A stretch of DNA of 64,000 bases from Schmidtea polychroa (Eukaryota): positions 44,950,001-45,014,000 of the forward strand of contig CM097886.1 in the NCBI GenBank assembly GCA_044892525.1. The letters run 5' to 3'. Both the position numbers and the translations under genes were made by a program. The notes beneath the pieces are model-generated. The model ran no database searches and was not told where the DNA came from. It saw nothing but the letters and a program-made list of their open reading frames with translations. This document shows, piece by piece, positions 41,109 to 64,000 of the stretch (positions are counted from its first letter, which is position 1; each line of letters begins with the position of its first letter).

Positions 41109-43290
41109 TGCTAAATAATTATATATCTGCAAATTCAAATATGAAAACTAAATTATTTCTGTAAATTCCATTTATAATGTATAAACCTTACCCTTGAGAT
41201 TTGTTATCAAGATTTGAAATTTTGGTTAATAGTAATTGATGTTTCTCTATTAAATATAGAAAATTTAGAATTAAAATACTTTCAGAAAATCTAACGATCA
41301 AGTAAAACTTTTTTTTGTAGCAATTGTAAATGATCGTTATAAACTTAAAATGTTCAATTTAAAGAAAATTTTTATTAATAAGAATATACTCTTATCGAAT
41401 TCTTGCTGTTTTGATAATTTTAATTTTTGAAGAGATTCCTTTTCTTGTGATAATTTAGATCTTTCTAAATTTAAATTGATTATATTTCATTAACTTAAAT
41501 GATAATTTAACCGTCAGAAAGTTTCTTTAAAGCTACTGGCAAATTGCAGAAAGGAAACTTCAAAGCCATAAATATGCTAACTTAAATTTAATAATATTAA
41601 TAATATTTTCAAAAATGTAATATCGCTAATTTTAAACAAGAAATATTATTTAATAAAATATTAATATAAATAAATTACTTTGTAAATTTCAACCCATTAA
41701 CCATAACATTTAATTTTTTAACATAGAAAGATGAATGTGGGGGTTTGGATAATAATTTATTTTCAATGCTTTGTCAATTGCTTATCAAAAAGTAATTATA
41801 GTTATAAATAATTAGTTATAAATAATCTGAAAATATTTATTTGGTAGATAATATAAGTAATACAATTGTAATAATAAATGGTAAACAATAATTATAATAC
41901 GAGTAAAACAATTTACCTAAAATTAAATTATTGAGCGTAAAACTAGTATATAAATTAAAGTAAAAAGCAGTTTATATATGTATAATAATCTCAGGAGTCA
42001 GAAAATTTTAATATCAAGTTTAAATTAATATTGATTAAAAGCATCGACAAAAAGATCAAATCTCCAACTGTAAGAAAAATAATTCTTACCGCATTAGTAA
42101 CAGCGGCGATATTCCGAGAAACAAATTAATTCTATATACCTGGTGATTGTCAAATATATAAAGCGGGTTTTGGAACAGAAAAACTAGTGGTGAAAATTTG
42201 TTAAGAGAATTTTAATGGAGAAACTATTGTCGAATAATAGATATTTAACCATAAACATAGAATTTATGGTCCGATTTTGATTAATCGATGGCCTCGTGAA
42301 TATTTGGTCATTAAGTAAATTAAGAACTATATTTTAAAATTAAGTAAATCAAGGGCTATATTTTGAAATTAAGTAAATTAGTGTAATACTTTTTTCCACG
42401 CCAGGTATCAATCTAAGGCTGGGTGGGATTGCTTTCTCTTTTCCCACATATGCCAACATTGTCAACCTGGACGAGTGTTTGGTCGATGCAGAAAGAGAGG
42501 GGTATAAACTCACGCCACCCAGAACCCGTTTTAGATAGTACGATAAGGAGTAGTTCTGGCTATAAAGCTCACCTGCTTATCGACTTTCACCTACCATGTA
42601 CATCACCAATATAGCCATCGTCATGGGTACATGGATAGAATTTACAATAGTAGTAAGGATGTTTACCGAAAATTTTCCCTTAAGTTTTTCATCTGTTTGC
42701 ACAAACTCGATTTTGTTTCAGTTGTTTTTTTCCCCAAAAACGCCATCACAATAATCATTTTATTTATGTTATATCATTCTAAATAATTATATTTATATTT
42801 ATTAGAAACATCTTTGGAGGTGATTCAAGTATTAATAGAATCCATGAATTATAAATTTTATAACAATCTAAAAATATATTTATAAAAACAGTCCTTTTTT
42901 TTAAAAAATAATCTTTTTTTTTGTTTCAATTATATTGACAGAATTCCAGAGATTGTAATGTTAACAAAAGTTGCTTGTGTTGAGTCTTGCCTTTGATCAA
43001 GCAAACATGTAGTTAGATTCTCAAATATCCTACCAAATTATATAAAATGATTCAAAAAATGTTTTTTTATAATTGTGCATCTTGCTTTCTAATCAAATAA
43101 TACTTTATTGTGTTCATTAAATTATCAATTTTATCGAATTTTTAAAAAATAATTATTCGCTGAAACCTATCTTTAAATTTCCTATAGAAAATAATAATTC
43201 AGGATACTTTGGAGCATGTCGACGACACAAAGCGGAGTCTAGATGTATTATATTAGTGTAAAATAAAAGCATAGCATATTATATTATTAA

Positions 43291-45813
43291 CACTAGGACG
43301 GCCAGAGCGGTCATTTTGACCGTTAAGCAATTTCATTTTTATTTTGTGAGAAAACGAAAAGGAATTAACGTCTCATATTTTGTGACAATTATTCATTTTT
43401 AGTGAACTTGTTGTGCATATCAAAGCTTCAATTATAGCATTTGTCACGACTGACATAATGAGGCCATCCCCATGGAAGGCCGAACCGGTCAATTTGACCG
43501 GTATCTTGAAACACACAAGAAAGTCACACATAATCATCTTACATACTAGAAAATATAAAACCAAATATAATTTACACACAACCGAAGCATTTAACAGTCA
43601 TTTGGGAATGTTTTCCACAGTAAACTTTACTACATACATGGCATATAGCTCCGGATTTGTTATCACAATGAGGAGCAGTACAAGTTTTTCGCTTCTTTAA
43701 TTTTGGTTGTTCAGAACAGAGTTCACCAGAGATGGGACTTGCTGTTCGACGGCTTTTGAACTCCTCACAAAGAGATGTAGCTAATTCAAAAATAAAATCC
43801 CTTCTTTTTATAGTTGATCCCGTAGCATCTTTGAAAATAACATGAGCGTTGAGAGCTGCTTTATCAAGCAAATCATAGAAAGTAGCGACTGGCCATCTTG
43901 CTGTTGCGGCTTTACTGCTGTATAAACGCAACATGCTATCCGTGGTATCTACAGCTGTCTTATTTTTGTTATAAAAGTGTATCATTTCAGGCTTTCTCTT
44001 TTCGTCAGATCTCACACTAGCAGTAGAATGGAATGTTGACATGACAATGACTTTCTTGTCCGATTTGCCTTGATAGGAAACAGTGACAGTGTTTTGACAC
44101 GATAAATGAGTCGATTCAAAAGAGGCTTTTTCTCCAAGTGAGCTAATGATAAAAAGCGTGAATTTAATTTTACAGTACCAACCAATGTTGTTCGATTTAC
44201 AAGGAGATGTTCAGCTAGTGAGAGACTTGTAAAGAAATTGTCAGTGCAGACATTGTATCCTTTATTGAAAAATGGCTCCATTAGTTTCCTGACTACAAAA
44301 TCACCCAGCCGTAATCCACAGCGTTCGTTTCTATCGTGAGCCCCTAAATATGGCATTTGATTGATGACAAATTTGGTTTTGACATCACTGAGAATCCAGT
44401 ATTTGATACCGAATTTATCAGGCTTATTTGGCATAAATTGGATGAAGCAACACCTATTTTTTAGCGGCAAAAGTTGCTCGTCGACAGTAAGGAAGGGATT
44501 AGGAGTATAAACTTGAAGACAGTTTGAAACAAAAGTCAAATATTTCACGAAAATGGGCATATTTATCTTGTTCTACTCTTTGACGTCGAGAACATTGTTC
44601 ATCAAAACGAAGAAAGCGCAGTATCTCACGGAAACGGTTCCGAGACATGACTTCTCTGAAGTAAGGAGATCCAAATTGAGATGACCAGATTGAATTGATA
44701 GAATGTCGGCGAAAGCCTAACACACCACGGAGATACAGCAATCCAAGAAAAGCATCTAATTCTTGTAGACTGATACACCAGTCTGACGAAGCTTCTTTTC
44801 CTTTCATAATTGTGTATTTTTGAATTAACTTCAGCATTCCCTCAGAGACTATCAAGCGCCAAGCGCTCAGGGGTGAGTCAATTTTGCGCTTTGCAAAAGC
44901 TTTCACACCAGGTGTTCCACTAAAAATATTGTGCGCAGGGAATCTGCCAACACTAATAGCGTGATTGTTTTCTACTCGATTCCAAAGAGTGCCATTCCTG
45001 CTAGATAAAAGCTGATTTTCTAATGAAGAAATTGAGCTATTGACTGACTCATTGTCACTTTCTAACGAACTTCCATTATCATCAGAGTTCCATTCATGTA
45101 ACTCTTCGTCAGAATCATTTCTTTCGGGCTCATCATCACTTCCCATAGGCTGATCTTCATCTTCGGAGAGAGCAGCGTCAATATTCCATAGCTTCTGTAA
45201 AGCACGTTGAGCAGCAATTCTTTTAGTTGGCATATTTGATTCTAAAATAATGATAAAAACTCCGTCAGTAAAATAAGAAACGTCAAATTTATTATTGGAT
45301 TCTAATGAAAACACGGTTTTATAATGTTTGTTATCCCAAGAAGTTCAAAGATTTTCTATAATAATTATTAGATATTTTCTTATGACATTTCGTTAAGTTT
45401 TTCGTTTGATTCTTTTAATTTACCAAATTTCAAAACTTAGAACTCTTAATGCTTGCTTAATTACACTTTTAATAAGCACTATCTTTGAATAAAAGCAAGA
45501 GAATATTTATAAACAAGAAATGAAGTATACATACATACCAGTCTGAATAAACGCGAAGACAATGTTTAAAATAGTGTAGCTTTGTGTCAGCTAAACAAAT
45601 ATTTTTATTTCATTGTTGTAAGTAGTTTAATAAATTAACTACTGTTAGAATAAAAATAGTTAAATTTTGAAAGCGTGTTAGTAGCACAAAGAAAGTATTG
45701 CTGAATGAGTTGCATCATAGAAATCTCAGCATGAAAATAAGGAGCATATGTGCACCGGTCAAATTGACCGGTTTGGCCTTCCAAGGTATAAAATATTTCC
45801 GGCCGTCCTAGTG
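43291..45813 (-). mobile_element. piggyBac transposon (PGBD4-like), complete ends, frameshifted transposase
   Basis: TTAA|CACTAGGACGGCC .. GGCCGTCCTAGTG|TTAA. The transposase from ATG 45233 is split over ORFs 44499-45314, 44012-44560 and 43572-44042, with TVDEQL, TDNFFTS, VDTTD and a C-terminal Cys-rich domain. Confidence 0.95.
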
Positions 45814-46478
45814 TTAATAAATTATAGTACATTATAATTACAATTATTCAGTAGTACTAATCATATAGCAGACAGATAATATAAATAAATAACACAGTAA
45901 CTTAATATAAATATATATTATACCCGAATAGGAATATAAATATGCACAAAATTTAATTTATTAAATTTAATTATATTTATATTATGTATTACTATGAATA
46001 AATTTTAGTATGTATACGGCCACACAAATTATTATATTCACCAAAAATTCGATGGTATATGACCTATAAAAACACCGAAAAATTTATAATTTTTTACCCA
46101 ACAATAGCTGGATAATGTGTTCTATTTAAATTAATATTTAGATTTTATTAGTATATATATTTTCAAAGTATATATTTTCAAATTCAAATTATTTATACGT
46201 TTTGAAATTCAATTTATTTGACAAGTTATTTAAATTTGTTTTAAATCTTAAATTTTCATTAACTCGAACACTGTTAAAAAGTTTTAACCATAATATTGTT
46301 TCCTAATAGCTAATTTATATTAAATAAAGCAAAAAAATTAATCAAAATATGTTTTCTATGAAATTTTGTTAATTAAATTGTAATTTGAATACGGATAAAA
46401 TAATAAAAAAATATCATTTCTTTATTTTTGATGGTTGATATTAAATATATGTTGATATTTAAATTTTTGATGTCCTAA

Positions 46479-47327
46479 ATGTACTTTTTTGTAATGAGTA
46501 AAAATCTTTTATTATACACTATTAATGAAGATTATCATATTTTAACTATTATATTAACTGTTATGATAATAATTTGGAGCTTAATATATCATTTTTTTCG
46601 TGCATGTTTTTCCAATTATAGTGACGAGTTTGCGTGTCGTCTTGTTACGTATCTCCACGGAGTTTTGGCCATATGCAGCTGTACTCTATTCATAATTTAC
46701 GAAAAAAAGAATCCATTTGATTCTTATAATTATGGTTAAAGTATATTTTTCAAAATCAATTAATTTTAAATTTAACCATCAGGTAAAGAATCGACAGTTA
46801 TAATGCAAATGATATTTTCTGTATCCCTTGGATATTTTATTTATGATTTCGTTTGGTGTTTTATGAAAAATTCTGAAAGTTTTTAAGTTTATACATAAAT
46901 ATATCTAATAAATAAATTTGTAGGCTTTTTTATGATGTTCCATCATTTGGTCAGTATTGCTGGTCTTTCTGTGGCTATATTCAGTCGTCGCTATGGGTTT
47001 GAGTTGTTATGTACCATTTTAGGCACCGAAATAACAAATCCGCTTTTACAGCTTCGTTGGTTCCTCAAATATTTTCAGCATAAGTGCTTACGACAAACAT
47101 TTTGTTATTGTTCATTTATTAATTTAGGTTTCTTTGTGATATTTTTCTTTTTTAGAATTGTTTTAGGAACTTTGTTACTGTATTTGTATTTGTCGAGTGA
47201 CAGCACTGATTTTCTAGGCAGAATCGGGGGATTCACTATTTACGTTATTGGATGGATATTTTGGATTCAAATTTTAAGATTTGTAATTAAAAAATATTTC
47301 TTTTCATTTTCAAATCAAGAAGTTTAA
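46479..47327 (+). CDS. TLCD5: TLC-domain membrane protein (TLCD5/TMEM136-like), 251 aa; exons 46479-46734, 46783-46878, 46924-47327
   Basis: CRLVTYLHGV, SLGYFIYDFVWC, MFHHLVS and EITNPLLQLRWFLK. Introns of 48 and 45 nt keep frame (756 nt). Confidence 0.8.
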
Positions 47328-47784
47328 ATTTTGGATATGAATTTATTTTTTATTTTTTAAATACTTTTTCACGTGATAATTCTTTAAAATTTATTAGATA
47401 CTTTTACAATGAAAATATTTTGAAAATGTAGGTCATATTTTGAGATGGTTAGTCGTTTTGAACTTAACCGAGTTTTGATTTGTTGTTATGTGATTTAATT
47501 AAATATATTATATATAGTTTGTATTTTTATGATTACGTGAAGATTACAATAAATCCAAAAATACATTTAAGGTTTGTTAATTTAATTGTAATTAGTGGCG
47601 TAACTAGGGTCTAAATGCAACCCGAGCAGCTGCCTATAACAATAATAGTCATAATTTTAAATTGGTCATTTTAGAAGTGATTTTTATTGAATCGGAAAAA
47701 ATACAATTTAAACATGTTTTAAAATGCAATAGTTATACATAAGGTAGATGGTAGTTCTACTATGTTAATGGTAATTTACTATGT

Positions 47785-48063
47785 TGTTATTATTATTGTT
47801 ATATATAGTTTTATTATTTATAGTCAGAGTTTATCTGACAAAATATTCTGTCCCCCTATGGGTAATGGTCGCAAAGGTACTTGTCACACTCAACATGTCA
47901 CAAGGGTATATTAATAATAATAATAATAACCCTGTAATAATAATAATCTGTAATCTATCTGTAATTGTGAGTTGTTGAGTGTGAGTAGTACCCATAAAGG
48001 AACAAAATATCTTGTCGGATAAACTCGGAGTATATATAATAAAACTATAAATAATAATAATAA
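47785..48063. repeat. Foldback element with ~80-bp arms
   Basis: TATAGTTTTATTATTTATAGTCAGAGTTTATCTGACAAAATATTCTGTCCCCCTATGGGTA is inverted against TACCCATAAAGGAACAAAATATCTTGTCGGATAAACTCGGAGTATATATAATAAAACTATA. Confidence 0.75.
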
Positions 48064-48763
48064 TTTATTACTTTATTTTTTAACATAGTAAATTTACCAT
48101 TTACAGTACATATTGCAAGAAAATCGAATGCCGATCAAGCTAATTGAAGCAGTATGTGGCCATTATTACTATGTTTGAATTATCAACAGCACTGTCGAGG
48201 TTATCAATATGCATCAAATCTCGTTCAATTGAAATTAAAGCGAGAGACAATTCGTAATCTATCTGTAATCTTAAGATAGCGGGAAATTTCGGTTTTTATT
48301 AAGCAACTTAATTTTTTACAGCAGAAATTTATAATTATAAAAATATATTCAAGCTTTATCATTTTATACATAAGAATATTGGTATTTACGCCAATATTTA
48401 TGTACAATTACCCAGTGTTGCTAGACATCCCGGTTTCCCGGAAGTGGTTTTCGGGATACTCATTAGAAATAATCGCTATTATTTCTAATCTTTTTTATAT
48501 AATCATAAAAATGATTATATGTATTTCAACCGAGATGTTGCATTGAGCGAGGTTTACAGTACATTGCCAAAGAATTGTCAATTTTTTTATAATAAATGTC
48601 TTTCTTACTTTATTAAAAGATTTCGATTTGTTTATTTACATCCCGATTCGGCATGGTAAATATTTGGTAACCCTAAATCCACTATTCAAACTATAGATCA
48701 ATTTGTTATTTGGTCGTTTCTGAAGAAGTGACGATAAAGGAAATTGTAAATGAATTTTTTCTT

Positions 48764-48784: not shown

Positions 48785-49656
48785 ACACATTTCTGTAACT
48801 ATAGAATTGGTGAGTCTTAGGTAACCCACATCTTACCCGTTCGTGTCGTTTGCGACGAAACCCAAGATACAATAACTTTTTTAACCATCCGACACCCGTT
48901 GAGCGATCAACGTTGGTGATGTGTCGCATGGGTAAATACTCGCGAGAAGTCAGTGTACATCTGTATTTTTATAATCACCGAGCATTCCAATGGGTTCATG
49001 GACTGCCAATAGAAATTCTGTGCAAGACTTTGGTTAGGTCCCTTTATGTCATGTTACAATGACGCGAACCTGGCTGATGGCTTGTCCCTCATGCTATGAT
49101 GTGAGACGGCGTTACCCAGCTGGAAAATCTTTCACAAATGCATTTGGATTGGAAGTGAAAATGAACTACATACAAGTTTATTAATGTATAAGGACAACAC
49201 TAAAGTGACTATCAGATATGTAAATCAAGAAAAGTTGAGTGTCCAGGGATTCGAACTAAATTGATAACTAAGTACTAAACGAAAGAATCGTATATTAATT
49301 TCGATTAAAAGTCAGAAATTTTGATCCTTCTGTTGGGCTGAGCCGAAGGGTAGCTGGGAGATTAGGTCAAATGTACTAAAGTAAAATAAAGAAATAAAAT
49401 AAACAAAGTTACGAACAAAATAGAATAGAACATAAGAAAAACAATAATTAGAAAATAGGAATTAAAACAAAAAAATATAAAAATAAGAAAAATTAAAATA
49501 GGACAATAGAATGACGAAAAATAACGTAAAATATATTAGATAATAAGGAAATTAAGGAAAATAAATAAAAACATAATTTTAATAAAGAAAATAGGAAGAA
49601 ATAACCCAAAAACAAGGAAAATAAATTAAATTAATAAAATAAGGCGGTATTCAATT

Positions 49657-49693
49657 CTGATTGGTCCGCGTAAATAGAAAACTAATATATAAG
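49657..49693 (+). promoter_or_regulatory. LTR promoter: inverted CCAAT/Y-box (CTGATTGGTC) and TATA box (TATATAAG, 49686)
   Basis: Consensus motifs just after an A-rich U3-like tract, followed by an ATG-free ~185-nt stretch ending at the donor G|GTAAGG (49892). Confidence 0.5.
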
Positions 49694-51962
49694 CAGACAT
49701 TAAAATCATTATAATTACCGTTAATTCAACAACTACTATAGAACTAGCGATTCACAGCAACAGACACTGACTTACAGGATCATCACAAGGACTATTCCAA
49801 GACTCAAGAAACTTCATCTAAATCTATATTCGATTCTAGTATTAATTAATTCTACTTAGTACTTTTCGACTCAGCCTATTTGAAACACTCGGTAAGGATT
49901 TTTGGATTTCTTATTTTGAATTTATAAGTAATGGTATAATCTAATTATAATTTAAATTTAAAGATCTTACCTTTTCTTTTCGTTTGATTTCAAGCATGTT
50001 ATTTAATTTAATGATATGGTTATTTAATAATAAATGATTTACTTTCTAGGAATTATTGATTTTCCTTTGATGAATTATTTTTATGAGTTATTATTATGTT
50101 AATTAAATTTTTGAGGAACGTGGCGTTGAGATACTCTATGTCATGGTGTGAGGTGCCTTCGGGAGCTCCACCGGTGGACATAGGGTATTTGAATCACGCA
50201 GCTAGATTGGGCCGAAATGTGAGGGCTTCTTCACGGGTCCAATCGCTGAAGGTGCGACCAAAATCTATAGGCAAATTGTGGCAGAAAATTGATAGTCAGA
50301 TAGTGATTGAAAACAAAGATATGTAATAAATGAATCGGAGGATTCTTAGGTATTCGCGCAGTGATTGAGGGCGTCACACCATCGTCTCCAGATATCGTTT
50401 CCACTAAGCCAAATTTTCTCTATCATCGATGTAAGTTGTGTGTCAAACAATCGTTCGGACATTAGTGGGGCTATATGTGATATATCTTCGATGTTCATGC
50501 TTGCGCTCGGAACCTATTCCTACAAATTTTCGGCCTATGACCTTTTGAACTGTTATTTCTTTCATCTAAAAGTTCTCTTGAAGACATAGTCGCAAGGAAG
50601 CTCAAAGTAGATTGCTTCAGATAATTATTAGGATTATTCAAAATGACTGTTTACGAATAGATTGTAGAACCACGTAAAATGATTTATTTCAGATAATTAT
50701 TAGAATTTCATAAAACGAGTTTGTTCCAAATAAAATTTTTAATTACATAAAATAATTTACTTCAATTAATTTTTTAGAATTATATAAAAATATTTACTTC
50801 AACCAATTTTCATAATTACATAAATGATTGGCATCAAATAATTCGAAATGAAAAATGCAACTAAGTCGAGCCAAGAAAAATATGTATATTTTTTTTTAGT
50901 TAGCCTGATGAGTCTTGTTACTTAAATGTAAAATTCCCGTATTTCATGAAGTTGGAAATCCAGCGGGATAGGTAGAAAATCTCCAGAATTTCAGGAACAG
51001 ATCGATAAATCGCATTTGAGAGGTTAAAAAGAAATCCACCCTTGGAGCAAATTATATCCAACATTTACGACATAGAGAATCGTAATTTCTTCCAATGTTT
51101 CCGTGAGAATTATTAGGCCATCAGCAGGTGCAGGGGAATTGTGAGCAATTACGCAGTAGATAGTAACCAGAGAATATGCCAGCATGCAAACATTGAAGAA
51201 CCTCCATTAGTAGTTACGAGTAGAGATAAGTGTGTGAAGTCGCAACTCGCATGCGTCACACATGTTCAAACACACTATAGCAGCCAATCGCAGGGTGTAA
51301 AGTTACACTAACCTTTACTCATAGAAAATCAGGCCGAACGTGTCAGATGGAGTTTTCCGTTATCTAATTAAACCACTGACCGGCATTAGATTTCATCGCT
51401 CGGGATGGATAGTCAACCATCAGGCTGATATTTTGCTTATCTACTTAGTAGGATTTGCTCTGCTACTTTCTCACATCGATACAATTTTCCGTTATCACAA
51501 ATAAATAATCAAAAAATTAAATAACTTTCCGTTCATCATAAACGAACTATTTAAAGGAAATTATGGACCTCCCTTTACCGTAAGTACTTAATCGACCCCG
51601 GTACATGATACACGCATCGAAATCACTCATTTGGGGGGAAAAATCAACAATTTCACTCGATTCTCTGCAAACGTGAATTAGTGACTTCAAGCGGATTAAA
51701 TAAATAATAATTTTCATCGACCGAGAATTTCTCTCACTAGTGGTAATGTCTCCCTTTCCTTGTGCGAAATCTGGCTTGATCGATTTATCTTCTTATAATT
51801 AAAGACCCAAAAGGTATGAGGATCCATCGTGCAGTAGAATCTTGTTGACCGGTAAACCCATAATTTTGTCTATGATCAGTAGAGTATGAGTGTGGTCAGA
51901 TGGCGACACTCTCGTTGTTTTAATCTATTTTCATTTTTCATTTTTCTTCACAGTCACTCAAA

Positions 51963-52706
51963 ATGTTGCCCAATTCCACAACCATTCTCAGACCTTGTTT
52001 TTCTTGCTCCGACAAGAATTCGATCATCAAAGATCTCCAGGCCCAAATCGGGAAGTATAAAAGAAAAATAGATGAGTTAGAGGGGACATGGTTTAGTCCC
52101 ACCCGGATGAAGGAGGCTCAGAAGAAGCTGCACCGAAGCGAGCACTGTCGAGACGCGTTAATTTCGGAGAGTCGGGCGCAGAGGAGCCTAATAAAAGAGC
52201 AGTCGGAGGCGCTACACAAATTATACGTCCAGGCAGCAACTACAAGGAAGATCGCGAAGATCCCAATTAATGAAGCCAGTAATCTTTTCCCAGCACATCA
52301 TGATATCTCTGGCGGGTCTTCATCTCCAGTCGGAAAGTCCTGCCATGGGTGCGTGGAGACCGAGCTCTCTCCCAGAAGTCAAGACGTCGTATTCACCGGA
52401 ACTAGTAAGGTACCGTCAAGCACCGCATCTTCCTCAAGAGTGCAAATACCGACCGCTTCAAAACCTAAACGTCGGCAATTGTCACGCGCCGAACGAAAAC
52501 GAAAGCAACGCGAGCGGGCTTCCGTCAAACAGATTTTACCATCAATCGCCACCCCAGTCGAGGGCAGCAGTAATTCAGCAGTCGTCGATCTAACAACCGG
52601 AATCTCAGGGCGAGTCATCTCCGCTACCGGGGTGTCATGGGAAGAAAATGCCGCCGAATTCTTCGATTTAAACGAGTTACTCGCCGACTCGGAGTGGGAA
52701 AAATGA
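51963..52706 (+). CDS. LTR-encoded 247-aa protein: CxxC + coiled coil, basic NLS-like tract, acidic-aromatic C-terminus (transactivator-like)
   Basis: Acceptor TTTTTCTTCACAG ends 10 nt before the ATG; KPKRRQLSRAERKRKQRER; WEENAAEFFDLNELLADSEWEK; AATAAA at 52842. A homolog exists at 4620-5268. Confidence 0.75.
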   Translation: MLPNSTTILRPCFSCSDKNSIIKDLQAQIGKYKRKIDELEGTWFSPTRMKEAQKKLHRSEHCRDALISESRAQRSLIKEQSEALHKLYVQAATTRKIAKIPINEASNLFPAHHDISGGSSSPVGKSCHGCVETELSPRSQDVVFTGTSKVPSSTASSSRVQIPTASKPKRRQLSRAERKRKQRERASVKQILPSIATPVEGSSNSAVVDLTTGISGRVISATGVSWEENAAEFFDLNELLADSEWEK

Positions 52707-52841
52707 GAACTTCCCCGTAAAATGGCTTCATCCTCTAGAGGGACTTGAACATCTACTGATAACATTTTCTATCTTTGTGTTTCCTTGTTCTTGTAAATTG
52801 GGTGGTATAAGTTTGTAATATATGTGTATAAAAATTCTCAC

Positions 52842-52900
52842 AATAAACCATTTTTGTCTGCATACGTTTTTTTTGTGTTTATTTTAAGACAGTTGATTCG
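52842..52900 (+). terminator. Polyadenylation signal in the LTR (candidate R/U5 boundary)
   Basis: AATAAA at 52842-52847 followed by a T/GT-rich downstream element. Confidence 0.5.
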
Positions 52901-53276
52901 AAATTGGTAAATAGCATTGAGAGTCGCAAAAAATTAGGAGCATTAGTCAATTGGCAATCCCAGTTAGAAACATGGCGATTGGTGACGGGATAAAAGACGT
53001 AAGTCCTTCTATCGGCAGTCAGGGTTAGGAAGTCGAGGCCTCAGTAAGGAGTAGTCCGAAGGAGATGGCTCACCTGCTTACTGGCGTCTCGCCGACATAG
53101 CACAGTTCCAACGTGAAGCGATTCACGGGTGCTATGTTGGAGTATAGGTTATGTACGGGCCCTGCTCAGCGATGACCGGGATAAAGACGAGTGTAATTGA
53201 TGGGGGCATTCATCCTCTAGACTAAAAATGGTACTAAAGAAGGTCATCCGAGTAGCTACCCGCCAACATAATTTTA

Positions 53277-53294
53277 TGGGGGCTCAGCCGGGAT
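53277..53294 (+). promoter_or_regulatory. Primer-binding site complementary to the 3' end of tRNA-Pro
   Basis: TGGGGGCTCAGCCGGGAT versus the canonical tRNA-Pro PBS TGGGGGCTCGTCCGGGAT (16/18). Confidence 0.85.
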
Positions 53295-53601
53295 CTAGAT
53301 TGAAATTTCCATTGACTAGTGCGAACTTGACTGGGATTTATTATTGAAATTTTGTCGAATAGTGTGAATTCACCGGGATTAGTGATTTTAATTGACTGGC
53401 GAATGCAAATTGACTAATGCTTATCGAGTCTTATTATAAAATCACGAGTAGAAAATAATAAAATTAATGATATAAATAAAGTAACTTTAATAATGGAGAA
53501 ATAAGACAAAAGTAAAATAAATTATAACGATTTAAAAGGAGAATGTTTGATGAAACAACCACTAATTAGTTATATATTACTGAAACATTTTTTATATAGA
53601 C

Positions 53602-54087
53602 ATGACGAAATTCGGGGACCAGATACAACAATTAATCAACTTCATAAATATCGAGAATGACTCCCTTAAAACGCTGACACAAAAGAGAGAAAGAATTAAC
53701 ATCATACTACTCCAATCAATCGGACAAACACCAGTCGTCCCCAACCACATGTTATTAGCCACAGGACTAAGTCACCCAGATGGGAAGGTAAACCCGGAAA
53801 CCGTGTATCAATGGTATCAAGAGAGATTGAACCACCCAGCATTAAATCTTGATTATCAACGTATAAAAGACCCCTTAAATACCATATCAGATACAATCGA
53901 GCGGAAAATACAAGAAAAACTGACTCTACTACGAACTTGTTTTGCTTGTAAACTTCGTCCTATTCGCGTACTGTTTTTGCCGTGTGGACACCTCAGTCAC
54001 TGCGAAGAATGTGTGAACGATTTAAAACGATGTACGGTATGTAGGCATGAGATAAAAGAAACTCATATGGTTTATTATGGTGAATAA
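53602..54087 (+). CDS. 161-aa protein with a C-terminal IAP/MIB/MYLIP-type C3HC4 RING (putative E3 ligase), inside the retroelement leader
   Basis: CFAC-x11-CGH-x3-CEEC-x6-CTVCR..I..THMVYYGE. Acceptor TTTTTTATATAG is 2 nt before the ATG; AATAAA signals at ~54084, ~54147 and ~54205. No BIR motif. Confidence 0.88.
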   Translation: MTKFGDQIQQLINFINIENDSLKTLTQKRERINIILLQSIGQTPVVPNHMLLATGLSHPDGKVNPETVYQWYQERLNHPALNLDYQRIKDPLNTISDTIERKIQEKLTLLRTCFACKLRPIRVLFLPCGHLSHCEECVNDLKRCTVCRHEIKETHMVYYGE

Positions 54088-54652
54088 AACTGTTACAGAT
54101 ACAATAACATCTATGAACATCAAATTGATACTGACAATTGAATGAGAATAAATGTAATTGTTGTGTGAAATTTTATTAAAGTTTTAATTTTTATTTCTAT
54201 GACGAATAAATTTTTGTTGTGAACTGAGTAATTTATGGCTTTTAATTTTATTTTATAACTTTGTTTTGGAATCAAGCGAAAAGAAAACCGAAATAACGTG
54301 GAATTAGTCCCAATATAGGCTGTAAGGGTACAAACCGAGCCACCTTAGGGCGGTACGTTCTATCATACGATAAAACCAATTGGGAGGGGATAACCGATCA
54401 ACCTAAGTGAGGAGCGTAGGGCGGGGTACCATCGCAAATGATGAGAAGTTTCTGCGGCATGACTGATCACCATGCCAATGTAGAAATGGATCATCGCGAT
54501 CGTCGTGCGTTGTGAGCAAGGGGAGAAAGGGGAAAACACTCCCAAGCGGTAAAGATTAAGTCGACAAATTAAAAGTAGACAGAGAAAATAGTAATCTTGA
54601 GTAAAAGAAGAGAAGAGAAGTAGAAGCATGCAGAGTAAGGAATGTTAAAGCC

Positions 54653-54799
54653 GAGCTGTAAAATAGCCCAGCCGGTCAAGGAAAACGAAAACTGAGCTGT
54701 GAAAAGTCCAGCCAGTTCGGAGATATTAAGATCGAGTTGTTGAATAGTCCAACCGGTCAGAAGGAAGAAGATTGAGCTGTTGAATAGTGCCAGCCAGTC
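54653..54799 (+). repeat. Four-unit 40-41-nt direct repeat array
   Basis: GAGYTGT.(.)AA.AG..CCARCCRGTY at 54653, 54694, 54734 and 54774, separated by 15-16-nt purine-rich spacers. Confidence 0.85.
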
Positions 54800-56169
54800 G
54801 TAAAGGCCTAGAAAAGCGAGAGATAGCAGTTAAGCTACAATGAGCTAATATCTGAATTAATAGAGAAAGGGAATATTAAAGCTAGCTAGAAACAAATTGA
54901 ATGTAATTACGAAAATTGGAGTTTAGAGAGGAAATAAACGAGCTCGTGGAAAAGATAATAAGATTATAATGAAAAAGGAAAGGGAAGAAGGAAACGAATT
55001 AAAGAGATAATGGAAAATAAAGAATAGGCGAAACGATGATAATGAGTAAAGAGGAAAGTAACCAACTAATTAAAGGGATCCCAGTGAAGTAGAGAAACTC
55101 TACGGAATATTTTTTTTTTGGTTAAACCGGGAAAATGCATTTTATTGGTTCCAGAGTAGAACCGAGTGGAATAATAGTAAATATGAAAAGTAAAATAGCG
55201 ACAACAGCGCAAAAGGATTAGGAAAATGAAAGGGGGGTAATAAGCAGTGACCGACAACGACCTATTCATATTATAAGTGATAAAAATAGATAATTATTGC
55301 GACTCTATAGATAATTGTTACTACCCCATATAGATAATTTAAAATCGACGAAAAATTCGGGCTGATGGGAGATTATAACCCGCGGAAGTAATTGCATAAA
55401 AAATAGGGGAAGCATAAACAGAACCTAAAAGGTGTCTGTGTTTGAATGTTGCAGAAAGAATGATGAAGTCGTGTAAGCAGATGCAACACGAGATCATTTT
55501 TTCATTTTAGATATCAAACCAATCCAGTCAACCAAGACAATCCAGAACCTGCACAAAAGGAATTCGAAGAAATCGACAATCGACCAAGAATAAATCCATT
55601 CAGAACCCGCACCGAGAGACACAGCAACCGGAAGACTCCAGAACGGAAGAAGATACAGATAGCGACATCTCCAACTTCGAACGAATCATCGATATATTCA
55701 ACCTCATAGTATTAGCAGCCATCTGTCAAGGACTAGTAAATCTCCTCAGAATCCCAGTAGCAGATTCATACAGAATACTTATCGAAGGAAACACAATCAG
55801 AACCGAACTCGTCCAATTCAGTAGCCGCTAATTACCAAGAAGCGTAAGAAAGGAATCACGGATAAACCCAATCTTAGATCTTCAAGTAAGCCAGGAGACG
55901 TATTATTTTCAGGAGACGAATTACAACAACTCAAAAGAGGACGATCTATTAAACATCAAAGAGGAATATCACAAGGATCAAGAAGAACCAATCAAGTACC
56001 TATATTTGACCAAGAAAATCTCGGATACACCCCTAGTCGATCTCGAAGCAGAGAAAGTCTGTCCGACATCACTAATAGTTTAGCAACGTCAACCGAGGAA
56101 TTATCAGCCCAAAGTTTAGTCACATCGTTAGACAATTTGAAAGAAACAGACGAATCTAGAACACCAATC

Positions 56170-57594
56170 ATGACGAATGTCGTAAAAACCGACGAGTATA
56201 AAGAGAAGTTCAGAGGAGAACCGTTCAACGGAAATGCAAACAAGTTAGCAACGTTCATAACCAACTTCGAAGTTTATATCGATGTGTGCGGATGGACATC
56301 CGAAGCAGTTAGTAAAAGGATGCCGTTGTTTTTGTGCGATAGCGCATTAGAAGTGTATTTAGAGGCTAAAGAAAGAAATACGAAATTAGATAAATGGGAC
56401 GATATCAAAACATTCCTGAAGAAAACTTTCGGAGCTAGCAAACCAATAAATCAAGCACTCGGCGAACTAGCAAATAGGAAACAAAGAGCAAATGAATCCA
56501 TTACGTTATATGCCAGCGAATTGCGGAGATTGGCAAAGAAAGCAATGAATGGGAAATTACCAGAAGAAAATTTGATCGGTTATTTCATAGAGGGATTACG
56601 CCGAGAAGAAGTAAGAGCATCTGTAGGCTGTCAGATGTGTACAACGTTAGAAGAGGCCATAGATTGGGCTACGAGGTGCGAACTCCACCTCCCAGCACAA
56701 ATGAACATCATGCAAGAGGATGGGAGGATAGCGACAGCCAAAGTAAAAACGGATAATGGAGATAATAACAACCAGGAACCAAAAATGAATCAATTCATAC
56801 CAGGAGCGCATCAAATTTTTAAACCACCACAAGGACGATCAAATGGGAATAATGGTAATCGTAACAACCTGAATAATGAGAACAATTTTAATAATTGACG
56901 AAATATGAACGATAACAAGCAGTGCCGAACATGCGGTAAACCAGGACACTGGGACAGAGATTGCTATAGAAATTCAAATTGTAATCGTTGCGGACGGCGT
57001 GGACATACCGAAAATGTATGCCAATTGCGAGGTTGTTTTAACTGTGGTCAGCCAGGTCACATCTCCAGAGATTGCCGAGAAAGGGGTCAACAACAACGAC
57101 CACCACAGCGAAATAATAATTATATGGCGAATCCGCAACGACAAAGTAACCCTAGCGAAGGAAACCAAATGAACGTTATGCAGGAAATCTCGCAGATGAA
57201 ACAGATGATGCAACAAATGATGAGACCAAGACCAGAATCAGCACCACAACAAACCCAGAATATACGTATGATGAGGAGTACCGAAAATCTCAACAATTAT
57301 GAAGTACATCAACATGTACAAGAATGGCAAAGACTGCAGGCCGAGGAAGAGAGGATAAAACAAGAACGCAACCAACAACGCCAAGAACAACCATTGCGAA
57401 TAAATATGATGAAGTTAGTAAAAGACCTGAAAAGCCAGTATTGCTACAATTACGGGAAAAACCCAAGGGTAGTACCCATGACGGAACCAGAAAAGGTAAA
57501 AGAAACAACAACGGAAATGAAAACAGAATTCAACCACGATTTTAAAAGGAAACCAGAGAATTCAGAAAATATTCTGGAAAAAGATAAAAGATAA
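56170..57594 (+). CDS. gag: Gag: capsid (56170-56898) and nucleocapsid with three CX2CX4HX4C knuckles (56923-~57077), interrupted by one in-frame TGA at 56896
   Basis: PFNGNANKLATFITNFE..W..F..KQRANESITLYASELRRLA..FIEGL; CRTCGKPGHWDRDC, CNRCGRRGHTENVC and CFNCGQPGHISRDC. Both parts are in frame 1. Confidence 0.9.
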
Positions 57595-58360
57595 AATAGA
57601 AAAGAAACATGAAGAAACGGAAATAAGAATAAAAGAGGGAAACAACCAAAACAAGGAGCAAATCAGTCAGTTAAACCACCAAATGCTACAAGAATCGGAA
57701 TCAGAAGAAACAACGATATTCGAAAATAGAAAACTAAAGAGAGTACCTAGGATGAGAAATTTGCGAATCAACATGATGAAAAGGACAAAAGGTACGTCGT
57801 CCTCAGACGAAGACTATGTGAGCAGTTTGGGTGGAGAAATACTACAGCTAAACGAAATAAGCGAACCTCCGAAAGGGGAAATCAAAGAGGAAGAAAGCGA
57901 AAGCGAGATAACCAGTGGAAGTGAAGACGAGGATATCGAAATAAAGTTGAGAAAAGCAAGGGAGGAAGCGATAAAACAGGTAGCCGAAATACTCCCGGTG
58001 GTAGTGAGAAACCAAGAGTTCATCGATGTAATACCATTCAGGCGATTCGTACAAAAAGTGATGAAATTGGAAGGAAACGAGAAAGATTTAATACCAAACG
58101 AGGAAAAATCAATTATAAAAAAGTATATGGAAAAAATGAAGCAGGCCGATACCACGCGGTATGTAATAAAAATCAGAACGAGCAGAGGACTTGAAAGAAT
58201 GTGGATCAAAAGTACAGTCACCGACGAACTTTTCGATTGGATACGAGAACATTTGGGAAGTTCGAGAAAGAAAGAATATCTGTATCAATACCAAGGAGAA
58301 CAGATCAAACCAGATATGCACTTAGTGGGAAATGTAGTGATGGTATGGTGGATGATGTAG
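57521..58360 (+). CDS. Polyprotein segment in frame 2 (acidic region + ubiquitin-like C-terminus), linking gag to the long frame
   Basis: Open from 57521 to the TAG at 58358. Repeats the LRINMMK heptapeptide of the upstream frame. Ends YVIKIRTSRGLERMWIKSTVTDELFDWIREHL..YQYQGEQIKPDMHL. Confidence 0.7.
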   Translation, partial: KQNSTTILKGNQRIQKIFWKKIKDKIEKKHEETEIRIKEGNNQNKEQISQLNHQMLQESESEETTIFENRKLKRVPRMRNLRINMMKRTKGTSSSDEDYVSSLGGEILQLNEISEPPKGEIKEEESESEITSGSEDEDIEIKLRKAREEAIKQVAEILPVVVRNQEFIDVIPFRRFVQKVMKLEGNEKDLIPNEEKSIIKKYMEKMKQADTTRYVIKIRTSRGLERMWIKSTVTDELFDWIREHLGSSRKKEYLYQYQGEQIKPDMHLVGNVVMVWWMM

Positions 58361-61300
58361 TCATGATGTACGATAAAATAATATTACGAGCGGAAGACGA
58401 CACCTCGTTAAGCGAAATGGGTATGTGGGACAATCATCAGATAATCAGGATAGTACCAATGGATGAATTTCGAACAAGAGATATAACATATCAAAAAGAA
58501 ATACGAGACCGGATGAAAACGTTATATCAAAAATCTACAGAAATAATTGAAATCCACCAACAATGGTTAAAAGAAAAGGAACTACAAGGAAAAATCACGA
58601 AACTAAGTACCAGATCCTGCAGACGGACCCCATGGGAAAGAGTGTGGAATGCAGAAAATAAGGAATGGGAAATCCGGAAAGGAATCTTCGTAGAAACAGA
58701 CATTGGTGAGACAGAAAGTGAATCGGAGGAAGAAGAAGAGGAACCTCCAGAATATGAAGAGGAAGGAAGGGGACAGACATCAGATGACGAAAGCGAGACG
58801 GATGTCACATCAGAAAGCGAAAATGAAGCGAGACACATTCATGCAATGAGGAAAAAGGAACGTGAATATGCTGATATGGACGGCGAGGAAGCGACGGAAG
58901 CAAGAGAACGAGAAGAGAGAGAAAGATATAAACAATTAGGCGATATCCTAATAAAGGGAGCGAAGAATCAAAAACGACAAGTAATAACATTAGCTAACTT
59001 CATTTTAAAAATATCGGATAATATCCATTATCTGAGGGAGATAGTAAAAACTATAGAAGAATACCGACAATACAACGAATGGTACCCGGAACAACTGGAG
59101 CAAATTATCGGGAAGTGGCGAAACCATGAGTGGTCACAAGATACCCAAGAGAGATACCGAATCCGAATCAAATACCCAGATAAGAATGTTGAGGAAGTAG
59201 AAGTACACCCAACCATCAAAATCAGGGAATTAAAAAAGAAATTGGCATACGAAACTCCTTTCCATCTACAACTGCAAGGAAAATCACTAGACGATAATGC
59301 AGACGTCGGAATAACACCCATGAGATTGGAAGAGACAAATGTATTAACGATGGCAGAAACGTTGGGGAAACCATTAAAAAGGAAAAGTAAAAGTGACAAA
59401 CCGACAAAAGGCAGTTTGAGTACTCCAAGTCCGAACAAAGCCCCAAGTAAATCTAATGAAACTGAAGAAGTTGAAGAGATTATCCTCGAAGATAGTGACG
59501 ATGAACCAGGAGAAAGATCACCGCTATTAGTAAGATGGCCGACAGGAGCCGAAATGTGGACTAATAACCAGCCATCAACGAGTTATCAACAACCAACGAA
59601 ACTAAACATCAAAGAAATCATCGACAATACTACGGAAACCGAAACGGACGAACAATTCCTGAAGCAAAGAGAACCAACGAAAATAACACCAGAAGGTCAA
59701 ACGGATAAAATAATAGATGAATGGAACGAGTGGCTGAGAAATAACGATAGTTCATTACCCAGAACGGATAACGAAAGAAATCCGAATTACGAAAATACCA
59801 GAGAAGCCGGAACGATGATGGAAAAACGGGCAAAAGGAAGGCCTAAGAAACAAGGAGGAAAGTCTGAGTTCAAAACCAAGGAACAATTAAAGCAAGAACA
59901 AGGGCAAGTTCGATTGGAAAAATTGGATAAAATAGTATGGGATCTAAAGGAAGCCCAACCAACGGTTGAAAGAGGAGAAAAATGGATACGAGAATTGATA
60001 AAAGATATGTTAATAATAACAAACCCACAACTTAGACGCTTGTGGCAACGGAAAGTAGCGAGTGTGGAAGCTAGACAGTTATGGCACACCGTTTCGGGGA
60101 TAATCCCAAAGTTAATCAAAGAGAAAACGAAAACCACCAAAACGGATTGGGATGAAACGAAGAGAGTGATTGAACAGCTCACGACAAATGCAAATGATGA
60201 CGAACATCATCTAGTGGTAATCACTTATTTGACGTATAATTTGATGGGATTAGCGGCAAGAAAAATACCGAATAAACAGTTTGCAAATCACGTGGAAATG
60301 ACCGTTTCAATCATAGAGAATACTATTGAACCACATATTATTCGTGCCGGAGGATGGAAAAGACTTATACAAGCGCCACGAAAAAATGAGCAAGAAAGGT
60401 CGATGCAAGTTAGGTTGAAGAAGTTGTTGAATGAACTAGAATGGGAACTACCCATGAAAGACCCAGCAAGCCGAAAAGCATCGATAAATTCGTTAATGAT
60501 GACTATGATGATATGGATGTTGTGCACAAGTGGAGCAACGGGTTTTACCATCTACGATTGTGATAATATGATAATGAGAGATAAATACTCATTGAGAGAC
60601 ATAGAAGAATGCAGACAAGCATCACCCAACAAATTAGACATAGTAAGAACAAAAGTTACTTACCATGTATACCAAGAATCAGATTTCATTAGAACGCAAG
60701 CAAGGGAATGCGTGGTATCAAAAAAGGTACTCGCATATTACTGTGGACAATATTCGTATTCGACTCTTATACTACCCGGTCTGGATAAAGAAATCGTATC
60801 AATACAACGAGAGGACTGTAAAGAGCTATTTAGAACCGGAGCGCTAAAAATGCATAACGGAGTGACGATTCACGGACAAACTGGAATGATTAAAACCGAA
60901 AGCGTTTACGTATCCGGAAAAGTAAAATCATCAGATGGGTCATGTAACGGAGGTACGTATACGATCCGAGGCGAGGTAATATCGGGAGTAGTAGTAATCG
61001 AGTCCTATACGGTTGAACTAAAGGAATACGAAGCGCAATTTGACGCAAATAATTACCAAATGAAGACCAACCCAGCGTGTAGAGCTACAGAAAACGTATG
61101 CAGGACAGGAGTATCAACTATAATCTATGAAGCTAATACCCAAAAATGCCGACTCCAACTGTTAAAAAGTGCTTTGTTCAATGAAGTAAAAGGAGAAATT
61201 TATGAGAACGAGAACGACGAGGATGGAAACGACAGAGTGAGAATGCGAAATGGAAAACCAATGCCACCATCTCCCAGAGAAAAAAGACTCTCAACGCAGA

Positions 61301-64000
61301 AAACACCAACAGCGTTAATTACCGACGATCCAGATCTAGGTATGAGATTTATCAAAGAAAAAGAAACCACCAAATGCGACAGTATAGTATATAAAACCAA
61401 TTACGCTGGTATCTATATGTCGAGACAAATAATCGATAGAGCAGTGGGAAAGATAGCAACGGAGGACGTAAAACTATACTTATATGCAAATAATAAAATG
61501 GATTTTCTATTTCATCGTGGACAAACGACCTTGCAAAAAGTATATTACGATCTGATACAAAACGATTGTTCATTGAATAAAGAAATACTGAAAACAAAGC
61601 TAGCTATTGCGATAACACACCCAGATAACACGATGCCATCACTCCCATTACCAGATGGACATTTTGGTAGAATGGTAGGAGAAGTGATGTACACATACCA
61701 GTGTACCAAGACGTATGCACGAATGCCAGAAAAATCCATACTACCCGAAAAGAGATGTGCAAACGAATTAGAAATCCGTTATAAAGGACAAAATCGATTC
61801 GTCCAACCAGTCACGAGAATTATGAATCCAGTGGGTTTCTACCCAAATCTCTTTAACTGTTCTAATGCATACGGACCTTTGTATGAAAGACCCGATGGCA
61901 AATGGATGATGTTACCGGGAAAAACCATATCCGAGGAGCCCAAGAAATATGGATTAATAGAACTCGCCACAGAGCTGGATTTCAAACCTATAGACGTGTC
62001 AAACGGTGGTATGTATTCCCCAGAAGATCTAGAAACAGCACGACTTAACGTACTCTTCCCAGCCAGACGAGAATCCATTTTGTCAAATATGGTTACAATA
62101 ACTGGGGGAACAAATTATCAATCAGGCCCGAATTACGAACTGCTATTATCGCCAGACCATTTTCAACAAGCTACGTCAAACATGATGAAAGCCATGTGGG
62201 GAAGATTTTTAGTTTTTGGACAAATGATGGCCGGAATATTGGGGATCATACTCATAATTCAGATAGTCAGAGTAATACTAACACAAATGTTAGCTTGTTT
62301 TGATATATACAAGCGAGAAAAGAAAGTAAATTGGAAAATGATAGTAGGCTTTCTACCATTCCTAGCTAAAACCATGGTGTTACATGGTCACTCAAAGGAC
62401 ATTCACCGAATAAAACGATTAATTAAAATATTAACAAAGATTAAAGGAACCGACGAAGAAGTAGGCAGACGATTCCGGAAAGTAATGTACGATGAAGCAA
62501 CAAGACGACAATTGAAAAAGAATAAGCCAAAATTTTTGGACCGATTTAGAAGTCAATCATCTAACAGCAATAGTGACGACGATGATAACGGGAACGATAA
62601 ATGTATATATCCAAACAGAAACCCAAACGAAAAACCAATGGAAACAGCACCATATTGGGAGAAGGAAAAGACAAACACCTGGATCGCCAATGGAAGCTAT
62701 ATACCGCCAGATATCGTGGGACCACAAGCAGCTTTGACCATGACACAAAATATGTATCCGCAATTACCGAGTCAACCAGGTATGCATTATATGCCAACAC
62801 GACGTACCAAAAGTGTAGATCAAGCAGATGACGTAAGAACAATAGCAGCGATGAGTCTACCTGGAGGTCCAGCAGTAACAGTTATGATTCAAATCAATGG
62901 TAAAGAAACCAATGCTATGATAGACACCGGAGCTAATGTATCAGCGATAGCGATTAATCAAATTCCCAGTAAGCACTGGAAGGATATCGAATCAACAACA
63001 ATCCACATCATAGCATGTAGTAAAGAAACAGTAGACGTGGTCGGAAGATGGTGGACTACATTGAGATACCAGGACAACGAAATTGAAACGTATTTGGCAG
63101 TAATACCAAAACTTAGCGTACCATGCATAATCGGAACGGATCTGATGCCAGAATTATTAAAAGAAGTGGTAATAGACTTAACAACCATGTGTCTAAAGGA
63201 CAAAACCGGTAGAATATGCAAAATGAATGCAGTAATCAGATGTCCAGAAAAAATAATAGTACCAGCGAAATCGCAGATGATTTGTCAGATAAAGGTGGAT
63301 ACGGGTATGGAAGGAGAAGTTATCTTTGAACCAAGCAAGTCATTCGAAAAGCGACGAGAGTTACCACTCGCAAGGGAAATAATCACAATAAACCAAGAAG
63401 GAGTGATACCGCTCAACATCACGAATTTCGAAGAGGAAGACAAAATCATTTATGAGAACGAAAAATTGGGAAGATTGACCCCAATGATGGACATAGAATT
63501 ACCGAAAGTGACCAACGAGATGATCAAAGATGATGAATTATGGACAATAGATAGTATGTTGTTGACGAATGATGAAAAGAAAAAATTGCACCGATTGTTG
63601 GTAGAATATAAAGATATATTCGCCATCTCAGATTTAGATTTGGGTACATGCGATGTTACCCTACATGCAATACCACTCATAGATGAAACTCCAATTGCAC
63701 TAAGACCATACAAGCTAGCAGAAATGCAAAAAGAAATAGCCGAAGCAGAAGTACAAAAGATGCTAGACGCAAAAGTAATCGAACCGAGTTGCTCACCCTG
63801 GCAATTCCCAGTGGTCATGGTAAAAAAGAAAGATGGCACCCAACGATTCTGTATCGATTATCGGAAGTTAAACGCAGTAACCAAGAGAGATACCTATCCA
63901 TTGCCGGACATCAATGAGATGTTATTGATATTGCAAGGGGCAGCATATTTTACTTCTTTAGATCTAAAAAGTGGATACTGGCAGATTAAAGTCAAAGATG
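58195..64000 (+). CDS. pol: Long polyprotein frame (~1935 codons, no stop in window): Ubl domains, Bcl-2-like domain, signal peptide, Env-like glycoprotein, protease, RT (partial)
   Basis: Frame 1 was translated by hand from after TGA 58192-58194 to the window end with no stop; first ATG is at 58345. It is absent from the supplied ORF track, presumably because it lacks a stop. Confidence 0.92.
59980..60372 (+). other. Bcl-2-fold-like domain within the polyprotein
   Basis: RELIKDML ~ Bcl-xL BH4 RELVVDFL; KRVIEQL ~ EQVVNEL; a hydrophobic alpha5 LVVITYLTYNLMGL; IEPHIIRAGGW ~ BH2 LEPWIQENGGW. The NWGR motif is not conserved. Confidence 0.6.
60484..62385 (+). other. env: Chuvirus-like / class III (gB-type) envelope glycoprotein domain with internal signal peptide and TM
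   Basis: Hydrophobic SLMMTMMIWMLCTSGATG then FTIYDC, YYCGQYS, GEVMYTYQC, CANELEIRYKGQNRFVQPVTRI, GGMYSPEDL, LFPARRESIL and TM WGRFLVFGQMMAGILGIILIIQIV. REKR at 61276. Confidence 0.85.
62854..63200 (+). other. Retropepsin aspartic protease domain
   Basis: INGKETNAMIDTGANVSAI (DTG at 62923) and CIIGTDL. Confidence 0.92.
63560..64000 (+). other. Reverse transcriptase N-terminal part (Gypsy type)
   Basis: PIALRPY..EVQKMLDAKVIEPSCSPWQFPVVMVKKKDGTQRFCIDYRKLNAVTKRDTYPLP..SLDLKSGYWQI. Confidence 0.95.

Follow-up and report, generated by a model that had tools for sequence, protein, structure and literature searches.

In this study, we analysed a window of 64,000 nucleotides from Schmidtea polychroa (assembly GCA_044892525.1, contig CM097886.1, positions 44,950,001 to 45,014,000 of the forward strand, here G000:C2:44950001-45014000) within a searched genome of 781 Mb. 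We found that its last part holds what is very likely a broken copy of a young, about 30-kb Burro-like Gypsy element, likely of a dugesiid planarian, with gag-env-pol order and a gB-type envelope gene (env). Judging from sequence, the accessory genes probably dampen cell-death and stress signalling of the host in the cells where the element replicates. The Burro-like placement rests on layout, domain matches, and a by-eye comparison of env with published elements. An initial annotation had proposed a giant and complex Gypsy element that bears env and carries cell-death and ubiquitin cargo; Pfam, a sequence profile, and a comparison with ten other copies bore this proposal out.

To begin with the copies, the RING open reading frame (ORF) of the element matched at 75% or more in all 150 scored candidates (the best 150 of 3,493), and at least 150 related copies of the family are present. 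Among the matches listed, 33 of 40 Bcl-2-region matches had a same-strand RING match 6.2-10.5 kb upstream by hand count, a figure that does not depend on which copies were then chosen. Ten other copies carrying both matches were fetched, and all 21 query modules were found in the same order and spacing in 10/10, including the accessory ORFs, whose absence from other copies the initial annotation had named as a refutation. These copies were 29.6-30.5 kb long (one length was recomputed from the main match of the long terminal repeat, LTR); their LTR matches were 3.7-4.2 kb, and their LTR pairs were 98.7-100% identical. In addition, a 4-bp target duplication was seen in 7/10, while the 3′ end of the window copy has been lost. 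Five of the ten held a single stop-free frame of 4,732-4,794 amino acids. Thus, gag, the ubiquitin-like and Bcl-2-like domains, env, and pol up to the ankyrin repeats form one frame in unbroken copies, rather than the separate genes first listed. Furthermore, every module measured is under purifying selection. The pairwise ratio of nonsynonymous to synonymous divergence (dN/dS) was 0.00-0.36 over all 13 modules (one copy was left out for each of three modules, where the match covered less than 80% of the length). For instance, the ratio was 0.01-0.03 for env, which is among the most constrained modules, 0.06-0.16 for RING, 0.12-0.19 for TRAF, and 0.15 for the ORF inside the LTR, the last from one unsaturated pair of seven.

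The 5′ LTR spans 49331..53268 (plus strand, as are all features of the window copy given below) and is 3,938 bp long, with TG at 49331 and CA at 53268; the same TG...CA termini were found in other genomic copies. The LTR, its ORF, the RING ORF, gag, env, and the start of the protease-reverse transcriptase region were all present as annotated, according to Pfam and the LTR termini. The LTR also contains a TATA-like site at 49686 and an AATAAA about 427 bases 5′ of its end. The primer-binding site (53277..53294, 18 bases) starts 8 bases past the LTR and is exactly complementary to the last 15 bases, plus CCA, at the 3′ end of the host tRNA-Pro(TGG). Exact matches to it numbered 1,058 in the genome, possibly with a sister family counted in. 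The tRNA-Pro(TGG) genes themselves form a long tandem array with a 475-bp unit on G000:C1 from 130901009 (L045), and their pattern had 2,190 genome-wide matches. The 9-base core of the primer site (53281-53289) recurs as its reverse complement at the LTR start (49336-49344), and this complementarity could pair both RNA ends. Within the LTR, a block of about 180 bases (50075-50252) was alignable in all LTR types (77-87%) but its flanks were not; Rfam gave no match on this block and 0 matches on 49300-56200.

In the window copy, the starts of the 5′ and 3′ LTRs lie 25,251 bases apart, so that 5′ LTR and internal region together are 25,251 bp. The initial annotation had expected more than 22 kb. 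It was right about the giant size, but the figure was understated, as whole copies reach about 30 kb. It had also expected a matching 3′ LTR, and one was found (downstream stretch L002, 1582-2973, plus strand), but truncated, matching only the first 1,354 bases of the 5′ LTR with 5 substitutions and 3 gaps. The five substitutions point to a recent insertion. The remainder of this LTR was not found within 17 kb downstream, and a pattern search for the LTR end with the expected target duplication gave 0 matches. The 30 bases 5′ of the 3′ LTR, checked for a polypurine tract, were kept in 10/10 copies, yet they are not purine-rich. As to the chromosomal setting, about 10 kb past the window copy, the minus strand carries a further member of the family (G000:C2, about 45.04-45.07 Mb), and some copies on G000:C4 (46239036-46291880) lie 26.2 kb apart, as in tandem arrays with common LTRs.

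The polyprotein opens with gag (56170..57594), in which a capsid (PF03732, E 7e-12) is followed by three CCHC knuckles (E 1e-11). An acidic spacer and a first ubiquitin-like stretch (57521..58360) were recognized by eye and had no Pfam match. A second ubiquitin-like domain (59150..59390) is weak, with a Pfam ubiquitin E of 0.011 and PDB E of 0.07-0.6, and shares 41-43% identity with the sister family. The ubiquitin-like domains of the initial annotation are weakly supported. Next come a Bcl-2-fold domain (59965..60385) and env (60496..62400). Env encodes a fusion glycoprotein of the gB-type/Monjiviricetes kind and sits, in frame, between gag and pol. It matched PF24664 at E of about 1e-70 to 5.5e-70 and has 16 cysteines, an REKR site, and a transmembrane segment (62224-62280). 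An aspartic protease with DTG (62881..63156, Pfam E 1.5e-9) and the Pfam-supported start of reverse transcriptase (RT, 63730..64000) follow. Between them, Pfam gave no dUTPase-like match on 63190-63520, where the published call used HHpred. Past the window, the same frame continues in the neighbouring genome (downstream stretch L001, 1001-6102) with the rest of RT (YIDD), RNase H, integrase, ankyrin repeats, and a long tail; RNase H and integrase had been predicted there. The best PDB match of RT was Ty3 RT (E 5e-88), followed by 8r0s ("Enzymatic polyprotein", 2e-58) and by retroviral chains at 6e-31 and weaker. Protease-RT-RNase H-integrase order with a Ty3-like RT, TG...CA LTRs, and a tRNA primer site are all features of Ty3/Gypsy elements (Metaviridae). 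The window copy is broken, and the whole polyprotein is beyond its own coding capacity: there is a stop codon inside gag (56896-56898), a frame change near 57521-57594 at one end of the acidic spacer stretch, and at its other end, near 58330, about 470 missing bases with a second frame change.

The Bcl-2-like domain called in the initial annotation was confirmed by a profile and a structure model. Alone, the domain is weak (Pfam E 0.04); phmmer with it returned nothing meaningful in PDB and a single repeat-protein match among 1.84 billion representatives. A single-sequence model (pLDDT 59) was uninformative and retrieved generic helical bundles only (best Z 8.6). We then aligned nine rows from three element families (the L074 row was dropped for stops in range), of which seven match PF00452. 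The profile of these rows matched Bcl-xL/Bcl-2 in all 60 rows shown, with a best E of 0.0019. A model from the nine rows (pLDDT 73) gave Foldseek rows that, as shown, were all of the Bcl-2 family, with probability 1.00 and TMq 0.46-0.58; the best E was 0.007, and no row reached 0.001. In addition, a BH2-like GGW is invariant in the domain. Bcl-2-like domains were also met elsewhere in the genome. Other env-bearing families (L074-L079, L083, L085-L087) have env 35-38% identical to that of the window, and several of them show a Bcl-2 Pfam match directly 5′ of env. Two further loci, L080 (G000:C1:50165001-50171000) and L081 (G000:C1:15403001-15409000), hold multi-copy Bcl-2-like matches and gave no matches to modules of the window element. 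In both, an ORF that looks TBP-like adjoins the Bcl-2-like match; by eye, L080 also has a P-loop ATPase resembling a packaging ATPase. They possibly represent a Polinton-like element with its own Bcl-2.

Two ORFs precede the polyprotein. The first lies inside the LTR (51963..52706, about 247 amino acids) and belongs to no known family; it is laid out as CxxC, a coiled-coil-like stretch, CxxC, a basic patch, and an acidic-aromatic tail, and it is 65-79% identical among four LTR types. It had been called transactivator-like, a guess from composition, and we found neither a PDB match nor a confident Pfam match; we infer a regulatory role. The second (53602..54087, 161 amino acids) ends in an IAP-type RING and lacks BIR. 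It matched PF13920 (E 6e-12), its top PDB matches were the cIAP2/cIAP1 RING (E 9e-11), and a protein search found no relative. A pyrimidine tract plus CAG stands directly 5′ of the ATG of the LTR ORF, and a T-tract plus TAG directly 5′ of that of the RING ORF; this arrangement, a T/C-rich tract and YAG before both ATGs, holds for all four LTR types, with varying letters.

On the 3′ side of the polyprotein, downstream of the window, there are two small frames (L001, 6103-7057), a whole TRAF-like ORF (L001, 7145-8533) with RING, Cys/His-rich fingers, coiled coil, and MATH, a coiled-coil-looking ORF (L001, 8727-9782), and a second coiled-coil-looking frame that ends at L002 656. MATH/TRAF and ankyrin cargo are thus present. 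In 10/10 copies, the TRAF query matched this separate 3′ ORF only, with no MATH inside the polyprotein. A protein search of the TRAF ORF gave a single generic TRAF match. As the protein libraries seem poor in planarian element proteins, neither this result nor the empty RING search is evidence of novelty. Many of the 150 scored MATH matches lie in frames of 487 or 4,791 amino acids that are typical of these elements, and host-like MATH clusters rank at the top. Clusters on G000:C2 at about 3-5 Mb and 105-124 Mb have short frames of about 180-230 amino acids; these probably are exons from an expansion of host TRAFs that is separate from the TRAFs carried by the elements.

The copies also differ in a regular way. 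In three other copies with different LTR types, the synonymous divergence was 0.03-0.12 in gag, the Bcl-2-like domain, env, and RNase H; in RING it reached 1.0-1.9, and the LTR ORF was saturated. In 500-base tiles against six copies, the core was mostly 92-99% identical (few tiles 83-90%), whereas the LTR was 66-91% identical or unalignable, and the last kilobase 5′ of the 3′ LTR was unmatched in all six. The divergent stretch runs without a break across the LTR, as would be the case if template switching swapped a module centred on the LTR, and we infer template switching as the mechanism of the mosaic. Judged from these comparisons, old LTR-centred modules appear to sit on one shared core, which is a modest addition to what is known. 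Such subfamily mosaics imply co-packaging.

Transcription of the family is weakly indicated. Of 30 bins into which the element was divided, 28 are covered by contigs of one RNA-like run; this run leaves out part of a host gene in the neighbourhood and has hardly any coverage of single-copy DNA nearby. In X1, the stretch 50503-51504 was uncovered, and this may be an intron or subfamily divergence.

We propose the following scheme. A full-length RNA would yield the polyprotein, to be cut by the element protease and host signal peptidase, and spliced RNAs would yield the LTR ORF, the RING ORF, and probably the 3′ ORFs. Env would move particles from cell to cell. The TRAF protein, the IAP-type RING, the ankyrins, and the Bcl-2 fold may act within the TRAF-cIAP-NF-kB and death pathway, either as ligases or as decoys; as the family lacks BIR, direct binding of caspases is unlikely. 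The LTR-centred module (3′ tail, LTR, LTR ORF, and RING) would be swapped on the shared core through template switching among co-packaged RNAs.

Several points weigh against this picture. First, the ten copies were picked by their RING and Bcl-2 matches, and thus these two modules provide no independent count. Second, the ubiquitin-like domain is below the Pfam cut-off. Third, the BH1 signature is not kept in the Bcl-2-fold domain, which makes a BH3-binding anti-apoptotic role uncertain. Fourth, under a strict acceptor test only the LTR ORF passed (one of six starts), against a background of 12 of 319 ATGs, and no splice joints inside the element were seen among the 15 of 65 joints shown for the RNA-like runs. 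Finally, the RNA status of the run is a guess of the tool, and contigs are blind to strand, level, and starts.

A more specific proposal can be offered only tentatively. It is possible that this BIR-less family runs a complex-retrovirus programme. Its spliced RNAs would be the source of an LTR-encoded regulator, of a BIR-less IAP ligase, and of a whole TRAF, and these proteins, together with the ankyrins and the Bcl-2 fold, would mimic the TRAF-cIAP-NF-kB hub rather than block caspases. Old LTR-centred modules recombined onto one env-pol core would then give subfamilies with different control, and element-borne TRAFs would inflate the reported planarian TRAF expansion. We suggest that part of the TRAF/MATH expansion counted in PMC6109357 is element cargo. 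In addition, the selection on unannotated small ORFs means that they deserve functional work.

It seems improbable that the family is a still-infectious virus passing between animals, with the cargo as a viral counter-defence kit. The strong constraint on env, the LTR pairs of up to 100% identity, and the co-packaging implied by the mosaics would suit such a virus. However, a constrained env is equally expected for cell-to-cell movement within one animal, and by eye there is clear divergence from the closest published element, that of Schmidtea mediterranea, which fits the vertical descent argued in PMC13524379.

The search for BIR domains revealed the sister family. BIR was found at all 150 scored places (the best 150 of 309 candidates), mostly in frames of 392-393 amino acids. 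Two BIR-bearing elements have the same skeleton as the window family, with MATH inside the polyprotein and TRAF, BIR-RING, and coiled-coil ORFs past pol; in both, the TRAF query matched the polyprotein too. Between the two families, RT is 93%, RNase H 85-86%, and integrase 80-81% identical, whereas env is 58-59%, the Bcl-2-like domain 32-33%, and the leader RING 28-30% identical. The layout of the sister family, as read from these copies, fits the domain list described for Burro1. That the window element is itself Burro1, as its host orthologue with the published anti-apoptotic role of B-IAP, is very improbable. It does share the Burro1 skeleton and an RT close to that of the BIR-bearing family, but no BIR was found by Pfam in the ORFs of the window copy or by tblastn in the window copy and ten others (40 stretches), and only the RING part of B-IAP matches the window family. 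A separate family, with a quite different env, holds both BIR and the in-polyprotein MATH. Lacking a BIR-RING gene and an in-polyprotein MATH, the window family is Burro-like, not Burro1. The genome offers a natural contrast between two high-copy sister families, of which only one has B-IAP, and this contrast can test whether B-IAP explains the success of Burro and the reported stem-cell benefit. The last alternative, in which nested or unrelated insertions have piled up as cargo around a plain Gypsy element, could appeal to the stop, the two frame changes, and the truncated 3′ LTR of the window copy, but it is refuted by the ten-copy comparison and by dN/dS far below 1, as the same modules recur between matching LTRs in every copy and one gag-to-ankyrin frame survives in half of them, so that the cargo is not nested junk.

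Upstream of the element, the window contains a host TLCD5-like (TLC domain) gene (46249-47521) with RNA-like contigs and a poly(A) loose end at 47521, a transposase remnant (43287-45817, PF13843), which we take to be piggyBac-like, and a short inverted-repeat element whose depth is very high (47789-48064).

Burro was an apt comparator in the initial annotation, and the layout of the window element matches that given in PMC6431247. There, Burro is described as longer than 30 kb, with gag, Ubi/SUMO-like and BCL2-like domains, in-frame env, pol, and ankyrins, and with MATH/TRAF, BIR, and Smc cargo, and a proviral nature is proposed. The partial precedent that had been anticipated thus exists: the one-ORF layout, the TRAF/MATH cargo, and the provirus idea are all found in that paper. 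Burro/GYPSM1 of Schmidtea mediterranea and a Burro-like element of Dugesia tigrina are about 30 kb long, with LTRs and one ORF of 4.7-5.1 thousand amino acids, as in the window family (PMC6431247). For the Burro group at large, the internal region reaches 25 kb and the polyprotein from gag to the ankyrins has about 4,900-5,100 amino acids. These published elements and the window family have in common gag, three CCHC knuckles, a BCL2-like domain before env, protease-RT-RNase H-integrase, ankyrins, an in-frame env akin to mononegavirus fusion proteins, and TRAF/MATH and coiled-coil cargo; the Ubi/SUMO-like domain of the published elements has a weakly supported counterpart (PMC6431247). The window family differs in lacking BIR and an in-polyprotein MATH. 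Furthermore, its TRAF is a whole separate ORF 3′ of pol, whereas in D. tigrina it is an upstream accessory ORF (PMC6431247). The LTR-encoded ORF, the BIR-less leader RING, the primer tRNA, and LTR subfamilies have no mention in section 7 of PMC6431247.

Six Schmidtea GAG-ENV-POL elements are given in PMC13524379, of which Smed_errantivirus_5 and _6 (HSV/gB-type errantiviruses) have the gag-env-pol order and gB-type env of the window family. By eye, among the six, the window env is closest to Smed_errantivirus_5 and the sister env to _6, with lineage-specific stretches in common. The parts of PMC13524379 used here give neither primer tRNA nor LTR for these two, and its main text has no matches for Bcl, ankyrin, or accessory. 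According to a report cited in PMC13465017, the IAP-derived B-IAP of Burro1 protects stem cells from caspase-mediated death. BURRO1 and BURRO4 are under PIWI control (PMC8532177). B-IAP is a BIR-RING ORF, whereas the window family has only the BIR-less IAP-type RING, which is also in the sister family.

The headline architecture is already published, and the window family adds a family, not a kind. Burro-2, -3, or -4 may already have its layout. The LTR ORF, the BIR-less RING, the acceptor-like sites, and the LTR-module mosaic were not found in the literature searched, and Grohme 2018 and Lee 2026 may describe them; the mosaic, the acceptor-like sites, the conserved ORF of the LTR, and a layout that lacks BIR are modest additions. 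Among more distant systems, complex retroviruses such as foamy viruses use splicing, have a number of accessory genes, and have a long LTR that overlaps one accessory ORF. The window element resembles them in its long LTR with an overlapping accessory ORF, its several accessory genes, and its likely splicing. However, its RT is of Ty3/Gypsy type, its env is class III-like and lies inside the gag-pol frame, and its genome is two to three times larger.

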